Shown: positions 49,362-63,905, numbered from the stretch's first letter. The stretch is DNA of 64,000 nt from Thermodesulfobacteriota bacterium (GCA_024762675.1 JANTGZ010000001.1:14322-78321); one strand, 5' to 3'. The notes: a model not told the origin generated them from the letters alone. Translations and numbers: made by a program.

Positions 49362-51281
49362 TTATGGCAGGGGGAGGGTGATGGTAAATGTGGTGCCCTT
49401 GCCGGGTGTGCTTTTAACTGAGATGTTACCATTATGTTGCTCGATAATTCGATGTGCGATGGCCAGACCGAGGCCGGTGCCCAGGCTCTTGGTTGTAAAG
49501 AAAGGGTTGAAAATCGATTCCAGATCGGTTTTGTCAATACCCGACCCGGTGTCGCTGATTTCGATGGTTAAGTAGCAAATCTTAGGTGCACAGTAGATGG
49601 TTTCCGCAGTCGTATCTTGAGCATTTTCCGGCCACTGGGTTCGTATAGTCAGGTTGCCATTGTCTTCGGTAGCATCAAGGGCATTGATGATGATGTTGAG
49701 TAATACCTGTTGCAGGAGACCTTTATCGCCCTTAATTTGTGGTTGTCGGTCAGGTCCGTGGTTAAGTTCAAGGGTGATATTTTTCTGGCCAATTCTATTG
49801 GAAACCAGAAAAAGGGCATTGTCGATAACATCTTTGATGGTTAGAGCTTCGAACTTGGGATTACTGGGTCGGGCAAAACGAAGAAGATTTTTTATGAATT
49901 CATCAAGCCTTTTTACCTGGCTGAAGACCTCGTTGAAAATCTCTTGGTTAGGATCCTGTTTGTCAAAGTTTTTACCGATTATCTGGAGGGCTGCGGCGAT
50001 ACCGGCCAACGGGTTGCGGATTTCATGGGCGATGCCGGAGGCCAGTTCTCCCAGGGAAGCCAGGCGGTCCATGCGCGCCAGATTAGTTTCCATCTTTTTG
50101 CGTTGGGTGATGTCGATAAACATGCAGCTTAGGCCGGAGGTCTCTCCCTCCTTGTTTGTGATATTTGAAAAACAGACTTCAGTAGGTAACCTGGTCTGGT
50201 CGGCGCAGATCAGGTCAAACTCAGATAAGTATCCGGTTTTCTGGTCGATACCTTTGCCGCCACCGCTGAAAATTTCTCGGATTTCCTCCTCTTCAGCACT
50301 GAACAGGTCTATTAGTGAAGTACCGACCAGATCTTTTACTGAATGTCCCAGCAGGATACTGGCAGAATTATTTGAATGGGTGATTTTCAGGTTGGTATCG
50401 GCTGTAATCAGGCCGATTCTTAGGCCCTGGATGATGCTTTCATAGAAACTTTTAAGTTCTTCATTCACTTCCAGGTGTTGGGAAAGTTCTTTATTCTGGC
50501 GGGCGATCCGCATTACCATTTCGTGATGCTTCATGGCTCGGCCGATGGCCATCGCTGAGTGGGTGACGATGGCTGTGGCCATGCGGGCCTCTTCGTAACT
50601 GACCGGTTTGTCGCTTTCAGGTTTGTCGGCCAGAACGTAGCCGTAGAAGTTATGATCATCACAGATCGGGATGATCAAAAAAGCGGTCGCATTACCGATC
50701 ATGGACTCGATGGTTTCGTCATGCTGGTAGTAGGTCAGGATTGAATAATGGCGAAAGCGGCCTTCATTGCTCAGCAGTTTGTCGAAGGCGCAGGCCTTGT
50801 CCACTCCTTTAAAACAGACATTGATGTTCTGTCTCTGTTTACGGCCTTGACGGCCACGGAAATTATCTTTGAAGATTCCGCATTTGACTTCAAGTGAGTT
50901 GGGCTGCAACTCTTCTTCTGTTTTTTCTGAAGGTTTTGATTTTATAACATTTAACGGTTCTCGATCAGCATAGGCTCTTTTCAGTAAGCCATTTACCTGG
51001 GCAAAGGGGACATTGATTTCCTGAGCGCTGTCAAAGCCATAGCTGGCCCGGCTTTCGAGGTTTTTGTCCTGCTGGTCATAATAGAGTACTACAAGGCGCT
51101 CCAGATCGGTGGTGCTGATGATATCTTCAGCAACATGGTTTAATAGAGTGTCGACGACATCAGCCCGAGCCATGCGGGTGACGCTGCGGTAGAGATAGCG
51201 AAGATCCTGTACGCGCTGGTCGCTATCTTCCATTGTCGTTTGATCGCTCATGAGATCACTTTTGTCTTGTGGTGGGCACAA
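49362..51281 (-). CDS. cytoplasmic sensor histidine kinase with GAF/PAS sensory domains
   Basis: HisKA H-box (HEIRNPLAGI) and HATPase_c (G-boxes DTGSGI; GTGLGLAI). No TM segment. Confidence 0.85.
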   Translation of the reverse strand: MCPPQDKSDLMSDQTTMEDSDQRVQDLRYLYRSVTRMARADVVDTLLNHVAEDIISTTDLERLVVLYYDQQDKNLESRASYGFDSAQEINVPFAQVNGLLKRAYADREPLNVIKSKPSEKTEEELQPNSLEVKCGIFKDNFRGRQGRKQRQNINVCFKGVDKACAFDKLLSNEGRFRHYSILTYYQHDETIESMIGNATAFLIIPICDDHNFYGYVLADKPESDKPVSYEEARMATAIVTHSAMAIGRAMKHHEMVMRIARQNKELSQHLEVNEELKSFYESIIQGLRIGLITADTNLKITHSNNSASILLGHSVKDLVGTSLIDLFSAEEEEIREIFSGGGKGIDQKTGYLSEFDLICADQTRLPTEVCFSNITNKEGETSGLSCMFIDITQRKKMETNLARMDRLASLGELASGIAHEIRNPLAGIAAALQIIGKNFDKQDPNQEIFNEVFSQVKRLDEFIKNLLRFARPSNPKFEALTIKDVIDNALFLVSNRIGQKNITLELNHGPDRQPQIKGDKGLLQQVLLNIIINALDATEDNGNLTIRTQWPENAQDTTAETIYCAPKICYLTIEISDTGSGIDKTDLESIFNPFFTTKSLGTGLGLAIAHRIIEQHNGNISVKSTPGKGTTFTITLPLP

Positions 51282-51349
51282 TTGTCAGTATGTTCAGAGT
51301 TCAGTTTTTTTGGTTTAACTCTAAACATACTGAACTCTGAACGGTAAAT

Positions 51350-52126
51350 TTACAGATTCAGATTGTGTGCGGTGCTGTGGCACTCTCCGCAAGTCGGGAA
51401 TTTCTTCATGATGCCAGGTGAATGCGGGACGCCATGGCAATCCTGGCAGGCCGGAACCATTTTGTGCTTCTCTTTGTGGCAAGCGGCGCAGGATAGAGCA
51501 TGGTGTTTAGTCGTACTGGCAGTCAGCTGGCTTAAAGCTTCATCGTGACATGAGCCGCAGCCCTCCGATGGCGTGGCGTCGTTGTAGACCACGACCAGGG
51601 GTTTATGGGCCTGATGACACTGGGCACAATCAGCCTGAACCATGGTTTCGCCGTGGGGTTCGTGACAGCTTACGCAGAGTGGTATCTGAGCATGTTCCTG
51701 GTGACAGGCGGTACATGCCATGGTTGTATGGAAGCTTTTGTTTTCCTGGAGTAGGGTTCCCTGTTCCTGGTGGCAGGTCAGGCAGGCCCCGGTGATATCC
51801 TTGGCTAGCTGCAGAACCAGGGGCATATGAGGGTTGTTGTGGCAGCTTAGGCAGTTTTCCAGTTCATAATGGGATTTGCCACTGTGACAGCTGTCGCAGG
51901 TGGGGATGTTTTCGCGAACAGTGGGGGGGTGGCCTTCGTGGCACTCCATACAGGTCACTGCTGTTTTATGGGCTCCGCCCTGGGCTTCAATGTCGGCCGG
52001 AGGCTGGGTGTGGCACTTGATACAGTCATCATTGCTGAGTTCGGCTGCCAAGCTTAAAGATGTGAAAGTCAGGATCAGCCCAGCGCTGATTATAAGTGCC
52101 ACCAGGATTGTCGTCAGCCTTTTCAT
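51350..52126 (-). CDS. dodecaheme c-type cytochrome (c7-type polymer-like), periplasmic
   Basis: Signal peptide plus 12 CxxCH motifs counted in 258 aa, many as CxxCHxxH. Confidence 0.9.
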   Translation of the reverse strand: MKRLTTILVALIISAGLILTFTSLSLAAELSNDDCIKCHTQPPADIEAQGGAHKTAVTCMECHEGHPPTVRENIPTCDSCHSGKSHYELENCLSCHNNPHMPLVLQLAKDITGACLTCHQEQGTLLQENKSFHTTMACTACHQEHAQIPLCVSCHEPHGETMVQADCAQCHQAHKPLVVVYNDATPSEGCGSCHDEALSQLTASTTKHHALSCAACHKEKHKMVPACQDCHGVPHSPGIMKKFPTCGECHSTAHNLNL

Positions 52127-52703: not shown

Positions 52704-54116
52704 ATGTCAAGTAAACGGGTTCTGGTTGTCGATGATGAACACCTGATACGCTGGTCTTTGGTCAGGGCCCTTGATGAAGCGGGATATCAAGTTGAGGCGG
52801 CAGAGACCGGAGCCGAAGCTCGCACTAAATATCGCGATTTCAGGCCTCATGCGGTGCTTCTTGATATATGTTTGCCTGATGCTGTTGGGACTGATCTCTT
52901 GAAGGAGTTCAAGGCCGATGACAAAGATTTAGTTGTCATTATGATCACAGCCCATTCCGATGCCGACTCTGCCGTCAGCGCTCTCAAGATTGGGGCTACT
53001 GATTATGTCGGTAAGCCTTTTGACCTCGAAGATGTCCTGCATTCAATTGAGCAGGCTCTTGAAAAACAGCGGCTACAGGATGAAAATGCCTATTTTCGTC
53101 GAGTCCTTAAAGATAAAATAGAACGTGACAACCTGGTTGGTAACTGTCCAAAAATGATCGAGGTCTATAAGCTTATCAAGATTGCGGCCGATGCCGATGC
53201 CAAAACTGTTCTGATTACCGGCGCCAGCGGTACCGGTAAAGAGTTGGTTGCCCGGGGAGTCCACATGCACAGCTCTCGTTCGAAAGAGCCTTTTATAGAT
53301 GTCAATTGTGCCGCCATTCCTGAATCACTGTTGGAAAATGAACTTTTTGGTCACGAACGAGGAGCCTATACAGATGCCTCCCAGAAGCAGAAAGGTATTT
53401 TTGAGATGGCCGGGGGAGGCACTGTTTTTCTTGATGAGATTGGAGATATGCCTATCGGTATGCAGGCCAAAGTTCTGAAAGTGATTGAAAATCGGAGTTA
53501 TCGGCGCCTCGGTGGCGATAACGATGTCCTTTCCGATGCCCGGATTGTGGCTGCGACCAATCAGGATCTAACAAGCATGGTCAAGGAAGGGAAATTTCGC
53601 GCAGATCTTTTTTACCGCTTGAATGTGATGCCCATCAAACTGCCTTCTCTGGTCGAGCGGAAAATGGATATTCCTCAACTGGCGGCCTATTTCATCAACC
53701 GTTTTAATGAAGAGTATGGTCGTAATATTGATGGGGTTGATGCTCAAACTATGCATCACCTTATGTCATATGACTGGCCCGGTAATGTTCGTGAGCTCCG
53801 TAATGCCATTGAACGGGCGATGATGCTCGAGCGTGGCAGCAGTCTCACTTCACAACATTTCAGCTCGGAAATTATTAATGCCGGCAAGTCTGCAGAGGGT
53901 AGCAGCGCTGATGAAGCTACGGCTGAAGATGATTGCTTCTCCTTTGGACAGGTAAAGCTGCCCAAAGATGGAATCTCTCTCGAAGAAGTTGAAAAACAGC
54001 TCATCCAGATGGCCTTGAAGCGTTGGAATGGTAATCAGACCAAGGCTGCCGAATGCCTGCGCATGAGTCGAGATACTTTGCGCTACCGGATGAAGAAATT
54101 CGGTCTTCCGAAATAG
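52704..54116 (+). CDS. sigma-54-dependent response regulator (NtrC family: receiver + AAA+ + HTH)
   Basis: Receiver (VLVVDDEHLIRW...D) plus sigma-54 activation domain (GASGTGKE; GAYTDA) plus C-terminal HTH. Confidence 0.9.
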   Translation: MSSKRVLVVDDEHLIRWSLVRALDEAGYQVEAAETGAEARTKYRDFRPHAVLLDICLPDAVGTDLLKEFKADDKDLVVIMITAHSDADSAVSALKIGATDYVGKPFDLEDVLHSIEQALEKQRLQDENAYFRRVLKDKIERDNLVGNCPKMIEVYKLIKIAADADAKTVLITGASGTGKELVARGVHMHSSRSKEPFIDVNCAAIPESLLENELFGHERGAYTDASQKQKGIFEMAGGGTVFLDEIGDMPIGMQAKVLKVIENRSYRRLGGDNDVLSDARIVAATNQDLTSMVKEGKFRADLFYRLNVMPIKLPSLVERKMDIPQLAAYFINRFNEEYGRNIDGVDAQTMHHLMSYDWPGNVRELRNAIERAMMLERGSSLTSQHFSSEIINAGKSAEGSSADEATAEDDCFSFGQVKLPKDGISLEEVEKQLIQMALKRWNGNQTKAAECLRMSRDTLRYRMKKFGLPK

Positions 54117-54214
54117 CTTTTCAGTTTATTGTTTTAATAGAAGCACCACAGAGAACACAGAGAAAAACTTAATTTTGCCTTTTTGGTTCCGGCCTTGCCG
54201 GATTGGGGATAGGT

Positions 54215-55573
54215 ATGAAAAATCATAAAATTATCTTTCATTTTGCGAGGCTGATCAGTTTTTTTGTTATTGTGATTTCGCCTCTTTTTTTTACGCAATC
54301 GATTTTGGCCGCCTGTCTGACCAGCTCCTGTCATCAGCAATTAAAAACTTTTGCCCAACTTCACGAGCCTTTGGTTGAAGGAGAGTGCCAGGCCTGTCAC
54401 GAGCGTGTGGTTGAAGAGCATCCCTTAAAAAAAGGGTCAAGTTTCAAATTGGTCGCTGATGGGGCAGCCTTGTGTCTTGAATGTCATGACGCTTTTGATC
54501 CAGCCTCCGGTAAGCTTCATGATGCTGTGGCTGAGGGTGAATGTTTGGCCTGTCATAACCCCCATGGCAGTAACGGTGACGGTCTGTTGCAGGCAGGTGG
54601 CGATCTTAAAGTGATCTGTTTCGAGTGCCATGACGGAACTCCTTTTGCACAGGAATTCGTCCATGGTCCGGCTGCAGCCGGGGTTTGTCTCGAGTGTCAT
54701 GATCCTCACCAATCAAATAATGAGGCGCTCCTACTGCATGATTCCAAATCTTTATGTCTACGTTGTCACGCTGACCTGGCTACAGGCCTGGAAGATGCAA
54801 CCGTCATTCATGCACCTCTAAATGATGAAGCTTGTAACTCCTGCCATGAAGTCCACGCTAGCCCTTTTGCTCATCTTCTTAAAGGGGATGGCCCCAAATT
54901 CTGTTTTTCCTGCCATAAAGAGCTGGCTGACAAATATAATAAGGCCGGTACTAAACACACTGCTCTCTATAAGGATGGTCGTTGTGGTAATTGTCACGCC
55001 CCCCATTTTTCAAGTTACGCAGCCTTGCTGCCGGAACGTGAAAGTGATGTCTGTCTGCGCTGTCATGGCAAGGATGATTTCCATCGTTCGAAGGCCTTGA
55101 AAAATATCCGTACCGAACTGACCGAAAAAGAGCATCTGCACGGCCCCTTGAACGACGGAGACTGCTCAGCTTGTCATGATCCGCACGGTTCCGACTTCTA
55201 TCGGCTCCTGGTTAATGACTATCCTGAAAGTTTTTACGCTCCCTATCGTAAAGGGACTTACGCTTTCTGCCTTAGCTGCCATGAAGAGAATCTTCTGCGT
55301 TTTCCGGAGACCTCCATCTATACCCTTTTTCGGGATGGCAAACGCAACCTGCACTACACCCATGTTGCTGACCCTCGCAAAGGCCGCAGTTGTCGGGCCT
55401 GTCATCAGGCTCATGCCAGTAACGGCCCCAAGTTGGTAAACGAGGATGGGGCTCCTTTTGGGAACTGGAAAATCCCTCTGCGACTGGTCCTGACCGAGAC
55501 CGGCGGCAGTTGTTCTCCCGGTTGTCATCGTCGCATGTCTTACGATCGTAAAAATCCTGTAATAAAAAAATAG
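54215..55573 (+). CDS. periplasmic multiheme c-type cytochrome (13 CxxCH + CxxxCH + Cx4CH)
   Basis: Start at ATG 54215 (the track's upstream TTG is unlikely). Signal peptide. 13 canonical CxxCH motifs. One CSPGCH near the C-terminus and one CLTSSCH near the N-terminus. Confidence 0.88.
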   Translation: MKNHKIIFHFARLISFFVIVISPLFFTQSILAACLTSSCHQQLKTFAQLHEPLVEGECQACHERVVEEHPLKKGSSFKLVADGAALCLECHDAFDPASGKLHDAVAEGECLACHNPHGSNGDGLLQAGGDLKVICFECHDGTPFAQEFVHGPAAAGVCLECHDPHQSNNEALLLHDSKSLCLRCHADLATGLEDATVIHAPLNDEACNSCHEVHASPFAHLLKGDGPKFCFSCHKELADKYNKAGTKHTALYKDGRCGNCHAPHFSSYAALLPERESDVCLRCHGKDDFHRSKALKNIRTELTEKEHLHGPLNDGDCSACHDPHGSDFYRLLVNDYPESFYAPYRKGTYAFCLSCHEENLLRFPETSIYTLFRDGKRNLHYTHVADPRKGRSCRACHQAHASNGPKLVNEDGAPFGNWKIPLRLVLTETGGSCSPGCHRRMSYDRKNPVIKK

Positions 55574-55900: not shown

Positions 55901-55916
55901 TGGCACAATATATGCT
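55901..55916 (+). promoter_or_regulatory. candidate sigma-54 (-24/-12) promoter TGGCAC-aatat-ATGCT
   Basis: Perfect -24 TGGCAC with correct spacing to a GC-containing -12. Lies ~160 nt upstream of the tetraheme cytochrome start. Palindrome GTGGGGtaagtGCCCCAC at ~55758-55775 upstream could be an activator site. Confidence 0.45.
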
Positions 55917-56078
55917 CTCTGTCATTATAGATTTGCTTAGATCAGCATTTTAAGTTGTTTTAGGTCTTTTGGGGAAGATCTTGATTTTTGAAATGTTGCG
56001 ATAAAAAGACTGCACGTACAACTGGAAAAGAGAGTGGGAGCTTAACAACAAATAAATATGCCTGAGAGGAATATAATT

Positions 56079-56759
56079 ATGAAGAGATATATGATAATTT
56101 TCTTGTGTGTTGCCGCCCTGGCTTTTACTGCCACGCAGGTTTTAGCTGGTGCCGCACCCGGAACCGGGATTGTCGGTTCTAAACATGATATGAATGTTGT
56201 TTCTAATCCGGATAGCCAGAATCGTGTCTGTGCTTTCTGCCATACCCCGCATCACGCCCTTGATGATGCTTCGGCCGATTATCTGCCTTTGTGGTCGCAT
56301 GAACTTACCAGTCTAACCTACACTGACTATAGCTCAATCACATTTGATGGTGCCGGATTCCCGGCTGGTGATACCTTGACCGGTCCTTCCCGTCTCTGTA
56401 TGAGCTGTCATGATGGTGCGGTCGCGGTTGACCAGCATTATGGCGGCATTGGTACTGACGTCCGTTCCGGTGACAGCTGGGGTGAAATCGGCGTCGGCGC
56501 CGGTGGTGACTTGAGCAATGACCATCCGATCGGTTTTGATTACACCGCGATTGCCGGTGTGGTTGATGATGAGATTCGTTTGGCTACAACTCCGGTTGCT
56601 AATCCCAGTGTAAACACGATTACCGAACTGTTGTGGGATGACCAGTGGATGACTTGTGCCTCCTGTCATGATGTTCATAACACTGATGCCAACGAAGACT
56701 ATTTTCTCTATGGTCCGCAGGCTAACTCCGATTTCTGCCTGATCTGTCACGACAAATAA
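56079..56759 (+). CDS. tetraheme c-type cytochrome, secreted
   Basis: Start at ATG 56079 (MKRYMIIFLCVAALAFTATQVLA signal). Four CxxCH motifs (CAFCH, CMSCH, CASCH, CLICH). Confidence 0.85.
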   Translation: MKRYMIIFLCVAALAFTATQVLAGAAPGTGIVGSKHDMNVVSNPDSQNRVCAFCHTPHHALDDASADYLPLWSHELTSLTYTDYSSITFDGAGFPAGDTLTGPSRLCMSCHDGAVAVDQHYGGIGTDVRSGDSWGEIGVGAGGDLSNDHPIGFDYTAIAGVVDDEIRLATTPVANPSVNTITELLWDDQWMTCASCHDVHNTDANEDYFLYGPQANSDFCLICHDK

Positions 56760-56790
56760 TAACCTTTTAAATTAGTCCAGTCACGATAAA

Positions 56791-56824
56791 GGCTGCCGGT
56801 AGTATCTGCCGGCAGCCTTTTTTA
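56791..56824 (+). terminator. Rho-independent terminator (ggctgccgg-loop-ccggcagcc followed by a T-run)
   Basis: Perfect 9-bp GC-rich stem followed by T6, directly after the tetraheme cytochrome stop. Confidence 0.8.
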
Positions 56825-56878: not shown

Positions 56879-58003
56879 ATGGAGTTGTCGATGCCTGTAG
56901 ATGTTGTCGTAAACCGTCCTGGTTCGATTAGATTGGCCTTTTTGCTGGTTCTTATCTTCTTCCTCTTGTTGCTTTTTTCTGCCTGTACCGGCCCTGAGGT
57001 GGTTCGTCCTCAAGGTTCGGTTTTTTTCCCGCCGGTTCCCAACCCCCCCCGGGTTCAATACCTGACCCGGATCTCCAGTTCAACCGATGTTGATGGTAAA
57101 AAACTGGGCGGGCTTTCAATTATTGCCGTCGGAGATAGCCGGGCTGAAAAACCCAAACCTATCATTAAGCCCTATGGAATTACCGTGCGTGATGGTAAAC
57201 TATATGTCTGTGATACTTCACCCGGGCGTCTGATTGTCATCGATCCGGCCCGTAAGACTTTTGAATTTTTGAAAGGTAACTACAGTTTCGGTAAACTGAA
57301 AAAACCGATTAATTCAGCCTTAGACAGTGAAGGCAACCTCTATGTTGCCGATACCATGCGCAAAGAGGTGCTGGTTTATGGTCCGAGTGGCAGCTTTCTG
57401 CGCGCCTTTGGTAAAGGTCTCGAGATGAAACCGGTCGATGTTGCTATCGATGGTGACTATCTTTATGTTCTTGATCTCAAGAATCATGATATCAAAATAC
57501 TTGATCGGAAAAGTGGAAAGCTATTGGAAACTATTGGTAATGATTCTGATAATAAACACCTTTTGTCGATGCCCATCAGCCTTGATACCGATCCCAAAGG
57601 CAGCATCTATGTCTCCAATATGACTTCCGGTAAAATTATCAACTTGGATCGTGATGGTCACCTGCTGGGTGAATTCGGCAAACTTGGTGATGGTTTTGGC
57701 CAGTTCGGTCGGCCCAAAGGTTTGACGGTGGATGACCAGGGGCGTATCTACGTCGTTGATGCGGCCCATCAGAATGTTCAGATTTTTAATAAAGATGGCC
57801 GGCTGTTGATGTTTTTCGGTGATCCCGGGCTTCCTTTTGGCTCCCTCAATTTGCCGGCTGGGATTGCAGTTACCTCTGAAGGGATTGATCTTTTTAAAGA
57901 ATATATCGATCCCGCTTTTCAAGTTGAGCAGCTGATTTTCGTTACCAGTCAGTTCGGTCCGGCCAAGATCTCGGTTTATGGACTCGGAGAACTGAAAAAC
58001 TGA
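56879..58003 (+). CDS. NHL-repeat (six-bladed beta-propeller) lipoprotein
   Basis: Signal plus lipobox (LLFSAC). Repeated NHL motifs (GNLYVADT; GSIYVSNM; GRIYVVDAAHQNVQIFNKDGRLL). Confidence 0.8.
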   Translation: MELSMPVDVVVNRPGSIRLAFLLVLIFFLLLLFSACTGPEVVRPQGSVFFPPVPNPPRVQYLTRISSSTDVDGKKLGGLSIIAVGDSRAEKPKPIIKPYGITVRDGKLYVCDTSPGRLIVIDPARKTFEFLKGNYSFGKLKKPINSALDSEGNLYVADTMRKEVLVYGPSGSFLRAFGKGLEMKPVDVAIDGDYLYVLDLKNHDIKILDRKSGKLLETIGNDSDNKHLLSMPISLDTDPKGSIYVSNMTSGKIINLDRDGHLLGEFGKLGDGFGQFGRPKGLTVDDQGRIYVVDAAHQNVQIFNKDGRLLMFFGDPGLPFGSLNLPAGIAVTSEGIDLFKEYIDPAFQVEQLIFVTSQFGPAKISVYGLGELKN

Positions 58004-58123: not shown

Positions 58124-58729
58124 ATGGTCAATTTATTTAAAAATTGTCGAATTATTTTGTTGATCGGCTCTCTGGCCGTGGTTTTCTTTCTTGCCGGTTG
58201 TGATGCCACTGCCCGTTATAAGGTCTTAACGACGATATTTGACGGGGTGCCAAGCCCGATTCCGCCGGAAAAAGTCCTTGAGGAGTATTATGCTAAACGG
58301 CTTCAGGCCGAACGCGATGCAGCTGCCGGCAAAGTTTCAGCCGACGCTTCGACCGGGCTTTTGCATGTTTCCAAACATCTTCCCTATACGCAAAAAAAAT
58401 GTAAGGATTGTCACGATTTCAGCACCGCAGTCGGCCTTATCCGGCCGCCTAGAGAGCTCTGTTTTGTATGTCATCGCAAGTTTCGTGACCATATTCGTGA
58501 ACCCTTTGTTCATGGTCCGGTTGCAGTTGGTGACTGTTCTGCCTGTCATCTGCCGCACTCTTCTGAAAACACCTCTCTGCTGGAGCTTGATCGGAATAAA
58601 ATCTGCGATAAATGTCATCATGAAGAGCGCCTTGCGGTCGAGATGCATGATAAAATTATGACCCACGGTATGGCCTGTGTTGATTGTCATGACGCCCATT
58701 ACGGCCAAGCCCGCTACTTTCTCAAATGA
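58124..58729 (+). CDS. pentaheme c-type cytochrome lipoprotein
   Basis: Signal plus lipobox (FFLAGC). Five CxxCH motifs (CKDCH, CFVCH, CSACH, CDKCH, CVDCH). Confidence 0.85.
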   Translation: MVNLFKNCRIILLIGSLAVVFFLAGCDATARYKVLTTIFDGVPSPIPPEKVLEEYYAKRLQAERDAAAGKVSADASTGLLHVSKHLPYTQKKCKDCHDFSTAVGLIRPPRELCFVCHRKFRDHIREPFVHGPVAVGDCSACHLPHSSENTSLLELDRNKICDKCHHEERLAVEMHDKIMTHGMACVDCHDAHYGQARYFLK

Positions 58730-58752: not shown

Positions 58753-60735
58753 ATGCGGCCGACCCTGGTTATTTTATTCTGCCTGTTAACGGCTCAACTC
58801 ATGCTGGCTGGTCAATCGCAGGCTCGGGCTCTTTTTATGATCCGGGATTTTCGTAACTGGCTTGAACTTGAATATGAGTATGAAGGTTCCAGTTCCGATA
58901 GTGCCGGCAGCAATCAGGATCTGACGGAACAGCAGTTATGGGAGACCTACCATTTTGAGATGGCTTACGCTATCTATAGCCCACGTTGGCTTAACGGCCA
59001 TTTTGAGGTCGATCTTGGCTTTCTGCAGGAGTGGTATGACGGCACCAGTGACGGTTCCGGCTCCGATAACGACTTTGTTCTCGGTTACCGTCTGGATGGT
59101 ATTATCTTGGATCGTAAATCTTTTCCCACAACGTTTTTTGCCGAGTCGGAGAGTACTCGGGCCGACCGCCGTTTCGCCCGTAATTACGATCTGCAAACTG
59201 AAAACTATGGTATCGCTACAACCTACAAAAATCGCTTTGTACCGGTTCACTTAAGCTATTTTTCCAACCGCAGTGAAACTGACGGGCTCGAACTTGATCG
59301 CGAGATTACAACCGAGACCTTTTCGGCAGATCTCTCCCACCAGACTGATGATGGCTTCAGCCTTAGTGAAATAAACTATTTCTATACCGACGACAAAACT
59401 TCATTTTCCGGTTCTCAGCCCTCAGATAAAAATAATGTCGAGGAGTATTTTCTCCGTAATTCACTGACCTGGGGAGAGCATCTCAAGCGCAGCTACTTTA
59501 TCTCCAGCTATCGTTATCGTGAGGAAGAGGGCAGTAATCCGATCAAATCTACGGACTGGTTTGAAACTATTGACTGGCGACCGGGACTTGCCCTGCGCCT
59601 GGGACTCGAATATCAGTTCAGCAAAGATGAAACTGAAACTTTAAATCGTAAAGATAACCGCTATCGGGGTTGGATCGAGCATCATCTTTATGAGAGCCTT
59701 ACAACCTCCGCCCGGGCCAGTAGCCGTAACCTCGAATTTGACGGCGGTAGCGAAGATGAGAACGGTTTTGTTTTAAGTCTTTCCTACCGTAAAAAATTAC
59801 CGGCTGATTCCTATTTTACCATGGGCTATTCCTACGGATATGAAGAGACCGAGCGGGACTTGGATGATAACCTGTTCTTCGTCGTCAATGAGGAGATGAT
59901 TGTCGATCTCTTTGAGAGAAACCTCTTAAATAATCTTGATGCTGTAGCTGAAACCATTGTTGTTTACAATGAGGATCGACTCATTACCTATGTTGAGGGA
60001 GCCGATTACACAATTGAACAGGTTGGTCGCGAAACCGAGATTATTATCCCCTCCGGCAGCCTTATCAATGAAGGAGACAAACTTTCGCTCGACTATGAAT
60101 ACCTGGTTAACCCTGACATCGATTTTTCCACTACCGTCCATCAGGCCAGTACAACTTTAACCCTTTTTGACCGTCATTACCGAATCTATGCCAACTATGT
60201 CAATTCAAAACAGAAATTACTCTCTTCGGCCGATGATCCGGATCTTTATGACAGTCTCTACAATCTTGAGACCTGGACTGTCGGGGCTGAAGGCGAGTGG
60301 AACTATGTGACTTGCGGCCTCGAGTACACAGATTACAACTCAACCACCGATATTCGCCAATATCTCGAAGGTTTCATTAATTATAGACGCTATTTCAGGC
60401 GTAATTTTATCTTTTTTTACCTGCGTGATCGCATAACCAGCCATGATGATTTGGATAATGGTACTGACAGTAATGGTGGCAGTGAAAATGTTCTGACCAC
60501 CGGTTTTCAGTATAAGCGAAAATTCCCGCTTGGGGCGATCGGTGAAGTCAACCTCGATTATTTAAACCAGAGCGGTCGTAGTAACGACCGTCAGGAACTC
60601 GATCTCGAAATAGCCTATCAGCTTCGGGTTGGGAAGCTTGTCTTTGAAGCCAGCATTGAAGAGGAGTGGGCCTGGACCGATAATCGCGATGAACGTAATG
60701 ATAAGGTTATGTTCAGAATCCGCCGCTACTTTTGA
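58753..60735 (+). CDS. putative large outer-membrane beta-barrel protein (porin-like; candidate conduit component)
   Basis: Cleavable signal (AGQSQA). 660 aa rich in Y/D/N/G/T with amphipathic alternating stretches (GFVLSLSYR; YFTMGYSYGYE; LEIAYQLRV). C-terminal ...RIRRYF ends in Phe, the OMP signature. No Cys pairs or enzymatic motifs. Confidence 0.5.
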   Translation: MRPTLVILFCLLTAQLMLAGQSQARALFMIRDFRNWLELEYEYEGSSSDSAGSNQDLTEQQLWETYHFEMAYAIYSPRWLNGHFEVDLGFLQEWYDGTSDGSGSDNDFVLGYRLDGIILDRKSFPTTFFAESESTRADRRFARNYDLQTENYGIATTYKNRFVPVHLSYFSNRSETDGLELDREITTETFSADLSHQTDDGFSLSEINYFYTDDKTSFSGSQPSDKNNVEEYFLRNSLTWGEHLKRSYFISSYRYREEEGSNPIKSTDWFETIDWRPGLALRLGLEYQFSKDETETLNRKDNRYRGWIEHHLYESLTTSARASSRNLEFDGGSEDENGFVLSLSYRKKLPADSYFTMGYSYGYEETERDLDDNLFFVVNEEMIVDLFERNLLNNLDAVAETIVVYNEDRLITYVEGADYTIEQVGRETEIIIPSGSLINEGDKLSLDYEYLVNPDIDFSTTVHQASTTLTLFDRHYRIYANYVNSKQKLLSSADDPDLYDSLYNLETWTVGAEGEWNYVTCGLEYTDYNSTTDIRQYLEGFINYRRYFRRNFIFFYLRDRITSHDDLDNGTDSNGGSENVLTTGFQYKRKFPLGAIGEVNLDYLNQSGRSNDRQELDLEIAYQLRVGKLVFEASIEEEWAWTDNRDERNDKVMFRIRRYF

Positions 60736-61301
60736 TGGGCAGAGGTGAAATAGTGGAAAAGCAACTCTTTACAGACTCTTACCAACATAGTTTTTTCCTT
60801 AAAGTCAGTTGTGCCCTGCTCCTGACCTTGAGCCTTTGCGGTCTGGGTCTCTATCTTTATCTTAACCGACCTTTTGGTGGTGACTTCCTGCTGGCTATTG
60901 CCGAACTTGATCGTCTGCGAAAGAGTATTGTCTGGGCTGTGGGGGTCTCAGTTACGGTTCAGCTTGTGATCTTTGCCCTGCTCCTCTATCTGGCCTCACT
61001 TTTCTGGACCCATAAGGTGGCCGGTCCGCTCTATCGCTTGAAAATGACTTTTTTGCGTCTTGCCGATGGTGACTGGACGCCGATGTATCAGGTGCGGAAA
61101 AATGACCAGCTCAAAGAGATTCCCGGTTTGCTCAATCGTGGTCTCAAAGCCGTGCGTTCAATTGACGATGAGATAAATAGTGAGCTTTTTGAAGTTGAGG
61201 AAAAATTGCAGAAATTTCACGTCGGTGAAAGTGATTGCGAAGTCATAACTGAGGCTCGGAGTCGCCTGATTCGGTTGCTTGATAGGCACTGGCCAATGTA
61301 A
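60732..61301 (+). CDS. small membrane protein: 2 TM helices + HAMP-like domain, no output domain
   Basis: Two hydrophobic helices followed by HKVAGPLYRLKMTFLRLADGDW...NDQLKEI, which fits HAMP heptads. Paralogous to the 62196 gene. Confidence 0.55.
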   Translation: MMGRGEIVEKQLFTDSYQHSFFLKVSCALLLTLSLCGLGLYLYLNRPFGGDFLLAIAELDRLRKSIVWAVGVSVTVQLVIFALLLYLASLFWTHKVAGPLYRLKMTFLRLADGDWTPMYQVRKNDQLKEIPGLLNRGLKAVRSIDDEINSELFEVEEKLQKFHVGESDCEVITEARSRLIRLLDRHWPM

Positions 61302-61386
61302 TTGATACAGGGTTAACCTTCACTCTGAGTGGTCAAAATTAAAAAATTAAAATAAACGTGGTCCGAACTTTGCTCTATTGTGATCT

Positions 61387-62220
61387 ATGAATAACCGACT
61401 TTCGCTATTTTTCTATTTATTGATATTTGCTCTGGCCTTGGGCCTTGCCGGTGTTCTTATATCGGACAGTGGTAATCCTCACAGCATGAAAACTGACTGC
61501 GCAGATTGTCATCTGCGAGCTCCGGCACAGGATGAGGCCGGCACCAATCTTTTTGTTGCCGATATCGAAACCCTCTGTTTGCGTTGTCATACCGAGGTCA
61601 AGGTGACCATGTCCCATCCTGTAGGAGTTAAGCCGACTTTTAAACTCCCGCTCGATATGCCGCTTGACTGGAAAGGTGAGATGACCTGCACAACCTGTCA
61701 TCGTATGCATGGTGATGACGATAACCGCTTCTTTTTTAATAATAAATTTTTGCGGCGTAACTCCACCGGCAAGGCCTTTTGTCTTGAATGTCACCAGAAT
61801 AACTTTCTCTCCAACCGTAGCATGGGCCATAGCGTTGCTCAGAATGCGGCGCACTACACTCCGAGAGATTCTTTTGCAGGAGAGGCTAAAATAGATGAGT
61901 CCTCAGCTTCCTGCTTGACCTGTCACGACGGCTCTCTGGCTAAGGATGAGGGCAGTGCCATAATCGAAAGAACGGCCGGTATCTGGCGCCATGGAGGTCA
62001 AAGTAATCGTAGCAGCCATCCTTTGGGCGTAAGTTACAGCAGGGCCCATGCGAGAAAACCTCACGCCTATCGACCGATGGCTGAATTGCCGAGGACAGTC
62101 CGGCTCCCGGGTGGGAAAGTGGAGTGTGTCTCATGTCATAATCTATATGCAAAAGATGAATGTCTGTTGGCCGTCTCAAATGAAAGAAGTAGACTATGTC
62201 TGACCTGTCATCGAAAATAA
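61387..62220 (+). CDS. heptaheme c-type cytochrome with N-terminal membrane anchor/signal
   Basis: N-terminal hydrophobic segment. Seven CxxCH motifs (CADCH, CLRCH, CTTCH, CLECH, CLTCH, CVSCH, CLTCH). Confidence 0.85.
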   Translation: MNNRLSLFFYLLIFALALGLAGVLISDSGNPHSMKTDCADCHLRAPAQDEAGTNLFVADIETLCLRCHTEVKVTMSHPVGVKPTFKLPLDMPLDWKGEMTCTTCHRMHGDDDNRFFFNNKFLRRNSTGKAFCLECHQNNFLSNRSMGHSVAQNAAHYTPRDSFAGEAKIDESSASCLTCHDGSLAKDEGSAIIERTAGIWRHGGQSNRSSHPLGVSYSRAHARKPHAYRPMAELPRTVRLPGGKVECVSCHNLYAKDECLLAVSNERSRLCLTCHRK

Positions 62221-62807
62221 AACACCCCTATAAACGGAGCCGCTATCTGGTTGATCGGGCTCTACAGTTGCGTTTTATGCTCCAGTTGGCGGGCAGCGGG
62301 TTGCTGCTGGTGGTGATGGCTGGTGTCAGCATGTTTCTATGGGGGCGCTACCTGCTTGAAAAAGAGCTCTACAGCCCCCATTTAAGCCATGCCGGTTCCG
62401 GTGAATTGCTTTTGCCTTTATTGTTAGGGCTAAATTTGGTCTTCGCGGCTCTGATCGTTGTCGTGGTGGTTCTCTTGGGCCGCCGTCATCTTAGGAAAAT
62501 AACCGGCTCTTTACTGCGTCTTGAAGACAACCTTGAGCAGATGGGGCAGGGAGAGGTTCCGGCAGAACTAGTTTTGCGTAATGATGACCCTTTACAATCG
62601 GTAGGGGAGACTTTTAATTCCTTTTCGTCAGGAGTTAACCAACGTCGTGATCTGGTTCGCATAGAGATTCGTAGTGCAGTTACTGCTCTACAACATGCAC
62701 TTGAAACCGGTTCCTCAGGTACAGCTGTCGTAAGCGATCTGGATAACGCCAAAACAGCCCTGGAAAAAGCCCGTAAAACTCTTAATTATAGACAAGTCGG
62801 ACCATAA
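62196..62807 (+). CDS. small membrane protein: 2 TM helices + HAMP domain, no output domain (paralogue of 60732-61301)
   Basis: 2 TM followed by ITGSLLRLEDNLEQMGQGEVPAELVLRNDDPLQSVGETFNSF, a near-consensus HAMP. Overlaps the 3' end of the heptaheme gene by 25 nt. Confidence 0.55.
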   Translation: MSDLSSKIKHPYKRSRYLVDRALQLRFMLQLAGSGLLLVVMAGVSMFLWGRYLLEKELYSPHLSHAGSGELLLPLLLGLNLVFAALIVVVVVLLGRRHLRKITGSLLRLEDNLEQMGQGEVPAELVLRNDDPLQSVGETFNSFSSGVNQRRDLVRIEIRSAVTALQHALETGSSGTAVVSDLDNAKTALEKARKTLNYRQVGP

Positions 62808-62864: not shown

Positions 62865-63905
62865 TTGTTGAAAAAGTTTAATTTATTTCTTGTTTTATCC
62901 TTCCTCTTTCTGGCGACTTGCTTTCTGGCGGCCTGTGTTGAGTCGTCAAAGCCCTCGATTGAGACTGAGGCGGTACTGGAGAAACCGGTTTGGCCGGCTT
63001 CACCGGCACCACCTCGTATTGCCTGGCAGGGTGAAATTAAAGATTTTCGCGATTTCCGCAGACAGGAAAGTTTCTGGCAGCGTCTCGCCGGTCTCGTTGT
63101 CGGCCAGCGCCAGAGTGGACTTGTCAAGCCTTACGGGATCTATGCCGATGATCACGATCATATTTTTGTCGTTGATACCGGGGCCCGCCGGGTCTATTTT
63201 CTTAACACCAAAGACGGCAGCTATAAAACAATACCCGAAGAAGATGAAAACCCTTTTCTTTCACCGATTGATATCACTGGAGATGGTGCGGACACTCTTT
63301 TTATCTCTGATTCAAAAAATGCCAGGCTCTTTCGTTATACTCTTAATGATGGCCGTTTAGTTGAGTTTCCGACGGTCGACCTGCAGCGACCTACCGGGAT
63401 TGTCTACTGCCTTAAAGAGCGGCTTCTTTATGTTGCCGATACGCTGGCCCACCAGGTCGTTGCCTTAGAGTACAATGGCCGTGAACGTTTTCGTTTCGGC
63501 GAGCGCGGGGTTGGTCCCGGCCAGTTTAATTTCCCGACGGCTGTGGCTATAAGTGAGTGTGGCATGCTGGTGGTTACCGATGCCCTTAACGGTCGGATCC
63601 AGATATTTGCCACCGACGGCACCTTTGAGCTTGAAGTTGGTCGACCAGGTGATACCTCCGGAACTTTTGCCAAGCCCAAAGGTGTGGCTTTAGACAGTGA
63701 CTGTAACATCTATGTTTGTGATGCCCTGTTTGACGCAGTCCAGGTTTTTGATAAAGGCGGGCGCTTGCTGTTGACTTTTGGTGACAGCGGTTCCCGGCCC
63801 GGTCAGTTCTGGATGCCGACCGGAATCTTCGTTGACGGTAAGGACAATATCTACGTCGCCGACAGCTATAACCAGCGTATTCAGATCTTTCGTTATTTAA
63901 AGTAG
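62865..63905 (+). CDS. NHL-repeat lipoprotein (paralogue of 56879-58003)
   Basis: TTG start. Signal plus lipobox (FLAAC). NHL repeats (HIFVVDTGARRVYF; RLLYVADTLAHQVV; NIYVCDALFDAVQVF; NIYVADSYNQRIQIF). Confidence 0.75.
   Translation: MLKKFNLFLVLSFLFLATCFLAACVESSKPSIETEAVLEKPVWPASPAPPRIAWQGEIKDFRDFRRQESFWQRLAGLVVGQRQSGLVKPYGIYADDHDHIFVVDTGARRVYFLNTKDGSYKTIPEEDENPFLSPIDITGDGADTLFISDSKNARLFRYTLNDGRLVEFPTVDLQRPTGIVYCLKERLLYVADTLAHQVVALEYNGRERFRFGERGVGPGQFNFPTAVAISECGMLVVTDALNGRIQIFATDGTFELEVGRPGDTSGTFAKPKGVALDSDCNIYVCDALFDAVQVFDKGGRLLLTFGDSGSRPGQFWMPTGIFVDGKDNIYVADSYNQRIQIFRYLK

Follow-up and report, generated by a model that had tools for sequence, protein, structure and literature searches.

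We analysed a window of 64,000 nucleotides (nt) from a Thermodesulfobacteriota bacterium (GCA_024762675.1, JANTGZ010000001.1:14322-78321), the whole stretch to which all positions refer, and focused on two small genes that flank a cytochrome gene. On the plus strand, the gene of a putative outer-membrane beta-barrel protein (58753-60735) is followed by HAMP-A (open reading frame (ORF) 1, 60753-61301), by a gene for a heptahaem c-type cytochrome, here called C (61387-62220), by HAMP-B (ORF2, 62196-62807) and, directly 3' of HAMP-B, by the gene of an NHL-repeat beta-propeller lipoprotein (62865-63905, Pfam NHL E 2.7e-25). A preliminary description of the sequence had given this order, which is correct and conserved in related loci. 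HAMP-A and HAMP-B are predicted to be paralogous membrane proteins with two transmembrane (TM) helices, a HAMP domain and a helical tail. The conserved unit is the HAMP-A/heptahaem C/HAMP-B triad, with tightly spaced or overlapping genes. Taken together, the HAMP-only pair and the cytochrome look like an undescribed inner-membrane sensing or docking module.

At the gene level, ORF1 has three candidate starts, giving proteins of 189 residues (the maximal one, TTG at 60732), 188 residues (ATG at 60735, the NCBI start for this protein, P0014) and 182 residues (GTG at 60753). GTG 60753 is probably the right one, and both TTG 60732 and ATG 60735 are probably too early, because a Shine-Dalgarno-like AGGTGA precedes the GTG (60743-60748) and the closest homologues share its V/M-EKQ N-terminus and 182-residue length. 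Thus, ORF1 would be clear of the barrel gene, which ends at 60735. HAMP-B (203 residues) starts inside the cytochrome gene, as previously noted; the overlap measures 25 nt and is identical in five related loci. Both ORFs are real genes under purifying selection: compared with three relatives at 69-75% nucleotide identity, the ratio of nonsynonymous to synonymous substitution rates (dN/dS) was 0.13-0.14 for HAMP-A and 0.14-0.19 for HAMP-B. Homologues, structure models and family profiles, presented below, further support the two genes.

Hydropathy and charge predicted the same topology for both proteins, N-in with two TM helices and with HAMP and tail in the cytoplasm, and the AlphaFold2 models agreed. 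For HAMP-A, with residues counted from the ATG at 60735, TM1 spans about residues 20-43, the periplasmic loop 44-65, TM2 66-90 and HAMP 91-145 (motif WTHKVAGPLYRL...GD...R..DQL...LN), and a helical hairpin runs to the C-terminus. HAMP-B begins with a cytoplasmic N-terminus containing seven Lys/Arg and the motif YKR.RYLVDR.LQLRF, followed by TM1 (about 28-50), TM2 (about 71-95, including N80), HAMP (about 96-150, ITGSLLRL...GQGE...R.DDPL...FN) and a helical hairpin tail. AlphaFold2 monomers built from family alignments (predicted local distance difference test scores of 73 and 76) share one layout: a TM1 helix, a short loop, a long helix joining TM2 and AS1, a connector, a helix with AS2 and its extension, a turn, and a C-terminal helix. 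The modelled helices cover residues 51-110 and 128-161 in HAMP-A and 68-117 and 134-170 in HAMP-B, and the connector of about 16 residues between AS1 and AS2 is unstructured. A Foldseek search of the PDB with the HAMP-B monomer model matched nothing but generic helical bundles (best E 0.67) and is uninformative for elongated helical monomers.

The periplasmic loops are about 10-20 residues long; with at most some 20 residues, neither protein has a sensor domain of its own. The HAMP-B loop has near-invariant L54, S60 and H62, the HAMP-A loop a conserved Y51, and the alignments of both proteins have no conserved His pairs for b-haem inside the TM helices. Beyond AS2 there is nothing but the helical hairpin, about 43-53 residues with no enzymatic or adaptor output domain. 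The 'HAMP-only' architecture of the preliminary description (two TM helices, HAMP and helical tail, with neither sensor nor output) therefore holds in the AlphaFold2 models, the hydropathy and the Pfam and NCBIfam scans, and its tail of about 70 residues has to be shortened. The most conserved regions of both proteins include AS1 and the connector, which rank clearly first in HAMP-A, and the least conserved ones are the tails. The conservation of AS1 and connector argues that HAMP itself is functional and not a mere membrane anchor.

The HAMP identity is clear at the family level and falls below threshold for the window sequences taken alone. HAMP-B alone matched Pfam PF00672 with 14.4 bits (E 0.049, profile positions 4-49 of 53) against a gathering cut-off of 25 bits, and HAMP-A alone had no PF00672 match in the Pfam scan. 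The HAMP of the 62196 ORF had been called near-consensus, and a PF00672 search had been proposed as the check; neither window sequence passes it, and the HAMP assignment stands through the family members and profiles. Pfam HAMP matched 34 of 80 members of the HAMP-A superfamily (best E 1.5e-8) and 10 of 18 members of the HAMP-B family (best E 6.8e-10), and HAMP_2 matched six of these 18. The set of 18 had been extended with Nitrospirota orthologues, and the window proteins form the first rows of both alignments. Searched against the PDB, the 80-member HAMP-A profile retrieved the TM2-HAMP region of the chemoreceptor PcaY (E 6.4e-8), the HAMP of the phototransducer HtrII, the chemoreceptor Tsr and Af1503-HAMP chimeras (the latter at E 0.006-0.009), and the HAMP-B family profile retrieved PcaY, Tsr and HtrII at E 6e-7 to 4e-6. 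For HtrII TM2-HAMP, the family profiles gave E 4e-6 to 2e-5.

The layout is also that of a HAMP domain, with AS1, connector and AS2 in about 50 residues right after the last TM helix. Classic HAMP residues are kept: a Gly-Pro or Gly-Ser opening AS1, a Gly opening the connector, and R..D..L...N at AS2. Near-invariant positions are G97/P98, G112, R121, D124 and N134 in HAMP-A and G104, L106, R108, G119, R128, D131 and N141 in HAMP-B.

Several families with a similar N-terminal half were rejected. Weak NCBIfam matches fell on the TM2-HAMP part of the SiaA and CtpM models for both proteins and of EnvZ for HAMP-B only, reaching 15-21 bits against cut-offs of 415-900 (EnvZ, 21 against 415). Pfam and NCBIfam gave no MCPsignal match for either protein, both of which end about 50 residues after HAMP, and no HisKA/DHp or HATPase_c domain. 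HAMP-A and HAMP-B are therefore not methyl-accepting chemotaxis proteins (MCPs), kinases or SiaA-type phosphatases, since the defining output domains are absent.

The paralogy of the two proteins, claimed in the preliminary description, was recovered through profile comparison only. Pairwise BLASTP of HAMP-A against HAMP-B gave no significant similarity. An hhalign comparison built from close homologues aligned TM2-HAMP alone (93.9%, E 1.5e-7); after Nitrospirota orthologues and the wider family were added to the alignments, homology spanned the entire proteins, the basic N-terminal motif and the tail included (99.9%, E 8.1e-35). Eight of eight Nitrospirota proteins in the upstream position were closer to HAMP-A of the window group than to HAMP-B, and the reverse was true for all eight downstream proteins. 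Since each Nitrospirota protein groups with its own counterpart (16/16), the duplication is old. By these profile and similarity comparisons, HAMP-A and HAMP-B are ancient, non-redundant paralogues that form two orthologous lineages.

The cytochrome between them has 277 residues and seven CXXCH motifs (Pfam Paired_CXXCH_1, E 1.7e-16). Its N-terminal hydrophobic segment of 19-21 residues is a signal anchor or a signal peptide, and the first haem motif and one invariant His lie within about 10 residues of it. Outside the motifs, six His and Met91 are invariant. We considered a loop His of HAMP-B as a missing distal haem ligand for C and dropped the idea, because the six His plus the Met account for all seven haems. 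Membership in the NapC/NirT/NrfH family of membrane-anchored quinol dehydrogenases was also rejected: the best that these models gave was a weak C-terminal TIGR03153 match (E 0.0033), at 17.5 bits far below the cut-off of 134.

Close homologues of the two HAMP proteins are few (19 and 13 clusters in a collection of 5.8 billion proteins) and lie on common contigs. Wherever they were found, they were syntenic with multihaem cytochromes and NHL proteins, as the preliminary description had expected of a true association. On the longer contigs the order is sigma-54 regulator, 13-haem cytochrome, small cytochrome, NHL protein, lipoprotein cytochrome, 660-residue protein, HAMP-A, C, HAMP-B, NHL protein, undecahaem cytochrome and octahaem-class cytochrome. 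The closest relatives of the window genes are in Candidatus Tharpella aukensis (HAMP-A 80% and C about 80% identical; loci L010 and L013). Further away, a HAMP-A relative with 32-37% identity on a 2.5-kb contig is again followed by a C homologue, with overlapping stop and start codons.

We then scanned one genome per GTDB species and found 66 loci that encode HAMP-A relatives. Local hidden Markov models (HMMs) for A, B and C were applied to the loci: a close C homologue (score > 260) with flanking sequence to either side was present in 24 of them, and each of the 24 has the order A-C-B. These loci come from metagenome-assembled genomes (MAGs) labelled 'Deltaproteobacteria', Candidatus Tharpella aukensis, one MAG labelled Gammaproteobacteria, many Nitrospirota/Thermodesulfovibrionia MAGs and Dissulfurirhabdus thermomarina. 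The triad thus occurs in the candidate phylum Tharpellota, in Thermodesulfobacteriota (including the cultured D. thermomarina, locus L075), in Nitrospirota, where A and C overlap by 4 nt, and in the MAG labelled Gammaproteobacteria. For a reciprocal test, metagenome contigs were searched with the C alignment, which yielded 389 stretches encoding C, and the flanks were scored in the 62 loci with at least 450 nt on each side. Both A and B were in place in 47 of them, only A scored in nine, only B in two, and neither in four. We inspected three of the nine A-only loci and B was present in each, behind two TPR genes in two cases and beside a disrupted C in the other. The A-C-B arrangement is therefore found in at least 50, and probably in 56, of the 62 metagenome loci.

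Nearly all triads share their cluster with genes for a putative outer-membrane barrel, for NHL proteins and for an undecahaem cytochrome. The adjacency of barrel and NHL genes is looser than the triad itself: another cytochrome separates the barrel from A in L005. Distant C homologues in a Planctomycetota MAG and on another contig (L076 and L077) come with a barrel-sized protein, NHL proteins and cytochromes, and with neither A nor B, and one Nitrospirota-type cluster (L151) has lost both. The reciprocal test and these clusters show that the association of A and B with C is tight but has exceptions, and that conduit genes occur in the absence of both.

Two Nitrospirota MAGs carry two A-C(-B) copies each (L058/L062 in Nitrospirae MAG S139_46 and L063/L074 in a Thermodesulfovibrio MAG); there, the triad is followed by a small tetrahaem cytochrome of about 141-154 residues that is related to part of C. 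One Nitrospirota-type subgroup has an ORF of about 96 residues directly 5' of HAMP-A, or of C where A is absent (L151:1909-2196, L007:827-1114, L028:9671-9955). It matches Pfam PilZ above threshold in L151 (E 9e-7), weakly in L007 (E 0.018) and not in L028, and would be a cytoplasmic c-di-GMP-receptor-like protein in an otherwise periplasmic cytochrome operon. We rejected it as a specific partner of the triad because L151 has it without A or B.

Beyond the triad, the two proteins belong to a much wider family. When 1.84 billion representative proteins were searched with an HMM built on the HAMP-A alignment, 1,285 clusters matched at E <= 1e-10, and 144 of the 149 best family representatives with sequence had 170-215 residues and matched end to end. 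Given this number and uniform length, proteins of about 190 residues with two TM helices, HAMP and a hairpin form a large family, whose length of about 180-205 residues is conserved across phyla. Members are unnamed or annotated as 'methyl-accepting chemotaxis protein', a mislabelling due to HAMP alone. One member of 326 residues (P0162) is a tandem fusion of two complete units, each with N-terminal motif, two TM helices and HAMP (HMM domains 13-139 and 221-293), which suggests that such units can work in pairs. Another, in a Methylomirabilis MAG (L041:3270-4725), lies between two genes of about 140 residues with a prokaryotic N-terminal methylation (pilin-like) motif, beyond which come O-antigen-ligase/TPR proteins; a Goldbacteria MAG (L037) has a similar gene-size pattern. 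These pilin-like neighbours are again proteins with a single N-terminal hydrophobic helix.

Upstream of the barrel gene, and on the same strand, the window encodes a sigma-54-dependent response regulator (REC-AAA+-HTH_8 in Pfam, 52704-54116), which heads the cluster, a 13-CXXCH cytochrome (54203-55573), a 4-haem cytochrome (56058-56759), an NHL lipoprotein (56879-58003) and a 5-haem lipoprotein cytochrome (58124-58729). The order from the 13-haem to the 5-haem cytochrome is the same in loci L001-L003, L005 and L075. Both NHL propellers and the 5-haem cytochrome carry lipoboxes (LFSAC, FLAGC and FLAAC, the last on the NHL protein 3' of HAMP-B) and are probably lipoproteins, as expected for partners of an outer-membrane barrel. 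The barrel nature of the 660-residue protein itself is a prediction from its signal peptide, its C-terminal aromatic residue (...RRYF) and its conserved position; it had no family match in the Pfam and NCBIfam scans.

Besides the sigma-54 regulator, which also heads the cluster in L002, L003, L005 and L075, there is a histidine kinase gene on the minus strand (49362-51281). Its product has an N-terminal region of about 270 residues with an unassigned fold, then PAS, HisKA and HATPase domains (Pfam), and no TM segment was seen in its sequence. Kinase and regulator genes are divergent in the window; in D. thermomarina (L075), the kinase orthologue is directly 5' of the regulator, co-directional and overlapping. 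The divergent minus-strand region (49362-52126) comprises the kinase and a 12-CXXCH cytochrome with a signal peptide, and the kinase gene adjoins that of an 857-residue protein with seven FG-GAP_2 repeats (46589-49162, minus strand, Pfam E 4e-93).

A sigma-54-type -24/-12 match, TGGCACAATATATGCT (55901-55916, plus strand, one mismatch), lies about 140 nt 5' of the 4-haem cytochrome gene, and a strong terminator-like hairpin with a 15-bp stem, nine GC pairs and a T run lies 3' of that gene (56788-56820, plus strand). From these two signals, sigma-54 may drive separate and strong expression of the 4-haem cytochrome within the cluster. The kinase of L077 (9299-10900), encoded next to a distant C homologue, was considered as a 'Rosetta stone' fusion with a 2TM-HAMP unit and rejected, since it has its own unrelated TM region and a Cys-rich insert. 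This insert, with several CxxC-like pairs, lies between the TM region and a HAMP-AS2-like 'ELGEAFNNL' and may be a metal- or cluster-binding sensor. The kinase and regulator pair in the cluster, the triad as a unit and the large family that also occurs without cytochromes are points that go beyond the preliminary description.

At the functional level, we tentatively favour, at somewhat less than an even chance, a split redox sensor in which cytochrome C would be the input, a HAMP-A/HAMP-B heteromer the transducer, and the PAS kinase with its sigma-54 regulator the candidate output. HAMP-A and HAMP-B would assemble in the inner membrane into a heteromeric bundle of four TM helices and HAMP. The cytochrome would dock through its N-terminal hydrophobic helix, the conserved periplasmic loops, or both, and act as a sensor domain supplied in trans to the HAMP proteins. 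It would itself be in electronic contact with the haem chain of the conduit, in the periplasm and outside the cell. A change in its redox state or occupancy could then be relayed by the HAMP bundle to the hairpins in the cytoplasm, which would modulate a soluble partner. The TM-less PAS histidine kinase and sigma-54 response regulator would be the prime candidate, tuning the expression of the cluster. We infer the A-B heteromer, how it touches the cytochrome, which way the signal runs and what the partner is from the gene arrangement and the predicted architecture. In favour of the sensor are the constrained HAMP in proteins that lack an input of their own, the strict A-C-B order, the retention of two non-redundant paralogues, the tandem fusion P0162, the clusters that do without A and B, the kinase and regulator at the head of the cluster and the sigma-54-type match inside it. 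More broadly, and rather unlikely in our view, the three-way split redox receptor, with hairpins that control a soluble kinase or some other effector in the cytoplasm, could be a new architecture and the more than 1,000 HAMP-only clusters could be general 'bare transducers' for single-pass or periplasmic partners, cytochromes in this case and pilin-like proteins in others.

Several observations weigh against the split redox sensor. Neither HAMP protein has a recognisable output domain and their tails show little conservation between phyla, so no conserved cytoplasmic partner is evident. Many family members have no cytochrome neighbours (in Bacteriovorax, Firestonebacteria and Methylomirabilis), and these contexts had no common theme, except for the pilin-like neighbours in one group. 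In the alignment, the N-terminal segment of several Nitrospirota C homologues resembles a cleavable signal peptide, which makes a TM-TM contact of C with HAMP-A and HAMP-B uncertain. On the output side, the triad of one Nitrospirota locus (L021) neighbours a kinase with TM segments and a HAMP of its own, and the need for a kinase in trans is therefore not general. Finally, the window holds five sigma-54 matches against 2.3 expected, a number that nine of 100 shuffles reached and that is not significant.

The same triad could be the inner-membrane end of the conduit, because A, B and C are its sole inner-membrane candidates and C's first haem lies near the hydrophobic N-terminus. We consider such a structural docking or electron-transfer role nearly as likely as the split sensor, and doubtful when taken by itself; the preliminary description had already named a structural or adaptor role and a split signalling system as the two options. 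Here, the four TM helices would anchor and orient C, maybe with a quinol/quinone site where the membrane meets the periplasm, and the HAMP bundle would do no more than plug the dimer together rigidly on the cytoplasmic side. Apart from A, B and possibly C, no product of the conserved cluster is predicted to lie in the inner membrane, the others having signal peptides or lipoboxes, and the overlapping or close genes suggest a stoichiometric complex. Conserved polar residues stand at the periplasmic interface and in TM2 of HAMP-B (S60, H62, N80) and at Y51 of HAMP-A, and the first haem motif and invariant His of C sit near a hydrophobic segment as in quinol dehydrogenases of the NrfH/CymA type. 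However, neither anchoring nor quinol chemistry needs a canonical and highly constrained HAMP, C stands outside the NapC/NirT/NrfH family apart from its weak TIGR03153 match, the TM helices offer no conserved His pairs for b-haem, and the HAMP-only family is also found without cytochromes. Moreover, related clusters without A and B indicate that the two are dispensable for the conduit, and a regulatory add-on therefore fits better than a core structural part.

Other explanations are less probable. A role in biogenesis, with A and B as membrane chaperones or gatekeepers for the export or haem loading of C, or of other single-pass or secreted partners, or for their hand-over to the periplasmic chain, seems improbable: A and B have no chaperone, ATPase or protease motif, and we know of no biogenesis role for HAMP, which is a signalling module. 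The family member between pilin-like genes in L041, with the similar pattern in L037, would fit it, as would the precedent of Geobacter, where the osc cluster is devoted to assembling cytochrome nanowires (Shen et al. 2025, as cited in PMC13194489); the osc components that this source names are not described there as HAMP proteins. It is less probable still that A and B are generic modulators or decoys, which tune full-length HAMP receptors or kinases from other loci by dimerising with them, and which sit beside the cytochrome through co-regulation only. The family is indeed large, occurs in many unrelated contexts and is routinely annotated as MCP from HAMP alone. However, A-C-B order and both paralogues are kept across phyla, and a fixed order with two paralogues retained since before the cross-phylum spread is hard to explain by co-regulation alone. 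As for spurious ORFs, a caveat of the preliminary description, or decaying remnants of longer receptor genes, the lack of an above-threshold Pfam match for the window sequences is the only point in favour. Conservation refutes this reading, with dN/dS of 0.13-0.19 over both genes, homologues at the same position in several phyla, a conserved length (144 of 149 at 170-215 residues) and confident AlphaFold2 models.

How the state of an electron conduit is sensed and how the conduit is linked to the inner membrane are poorly understood outside Shewanella and Geobacter. If the split redox sensor or the docking role is right, the triad would be a concrete candidate for the sensing or connecting step, and one with a cultured host, D. 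thermomarina. It would also give a first role to a large HAMP-only family currently mislabelled as chemoreceptors, and provide a natural heteromeric HAMP and a relay without a fused output. The HAMP domain and a HAMP-terminated receptor (Af1503) were known; the new element is a multi-phylum triad of output-less HAMP paralogues around a heptahaem cytochrome. The clusters with the triad are hosted by Nitrospirota, Thermodesulfobacteriota, the candidate phylum Tharpellota and related sediment and vent lineages. For Tharpellota, whose description reported no common terminal reductases in its MAGs (PMC9213671), such a large cluster of the extracellular-electron-transfer type could bear on the missing reductases.

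Compared with known systems, the cluster as a whole resembles porin-cytochrome conduits. Its cytochromes, lipoboxes and NHL proteins were confirmed, and the 660-residue barrel candidate had no family match. Syntrophic sulfate reducers have been reported to carry an OetI-type (ExtABCD-like) conduit, and the authors place a barrel from D. thermomarina in their OetI tree (PMC10553843). In Tenderiales, the Uet cluster encodes an undecahaem cytochrome along with a barrel and two NHL proteins (bioRxiv 10.1101/2022.05.06.490989), and Desulfovibrio ferrophilus has NHL propellers beside outer-membrane cytochromes (PMC5815863). On the side of the window, the genes that recall the OetI-type and Uet clusters are those for a barrel candidate, periplasmic or lipoprotein multihaem cytochromes, two NHL propellers and, in relatives of the window, an undecahaem cytochrome. 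This likeness is one of gene content, and HAMP or small 2-TM proteins are unmentioned in the OetI, Uet and D. ferrophilus descriptions (PMC10553843, 10.1101/2022.05.06.490989, PMC5815863). We did not file the triad as an osc (OmcS-companion) system either: PMC13194489 names OscH for folding, OscE/F/G for secretion and OscD for morphology, and describes none of them as HAMP proteins. Full-text literature searches returned nothing relevant that links HAMP to multihaem cytochrome/NHL clusters, and nothing relevant on HAMP-only proteins.

At the level of the single proteins, SiaA-type phosphatases, EnvZ and CtpM have an N-terminal 2TM-HAMP module, on which the weak matches of the window proteins fall, but they continue into PP2C, kinase or MCP outputs that the window proteins do not have. 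DcrA of Desulfovibrio and GSU0582 and GSU0935 of Geobacter are chemoreceptors with a periplasmic c-type haem sensor domain. As proposed for the triad, and likewise in related anaerobes, a 2-TM/HAMP transducer there takes its redox or ligand input from c-type haem in the periplasm. However, in these full-length chemoreceptors the haem domain is part of the receptor chain, fused between its TM helices, whereas here the candidate input is a heptahaem protein on its own and the transducers lack a signalling domain. The first HAMP structure came from Af1503 of Archaeoglobus fulgidus, a membrane receptor in which HAMP comes last and no output domain follows. HAMP-A and HAMP-B are like it in having HAMP as their last domain, and its PDB chimeras are matched by the family profile. 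However, Af1503 has a sizeable extracytoplasmic sensor, whereas the window proteins have none, carry an extra helical hairpin and form a paralogous pair around a cytochrome.

Finally, HtrII of haloarchaea takes its signal from a separate membrane protein, sensory rhodopsin II, through TM contacts. It shares with HAMP-A and HAMP-B the pair of TM helices, the minimal loop outside the cytoplasm and the HAMP close to the membrane, and its input protein is encoded adjacent to it. Unlike them, it has a long methyl-accepting signalling domain that binds CheA/CheW, where A and B stop after a hairpin of about 50 residues; its partner is a 7-TM rhodopsin and it forms a homodimer, whereas here the partner would be a multihaem cytochrome and the transducer two distinct paralogues. 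By analogy, the sensory rhodopsin II-HtrII pair is the closest working precedent for the triad.

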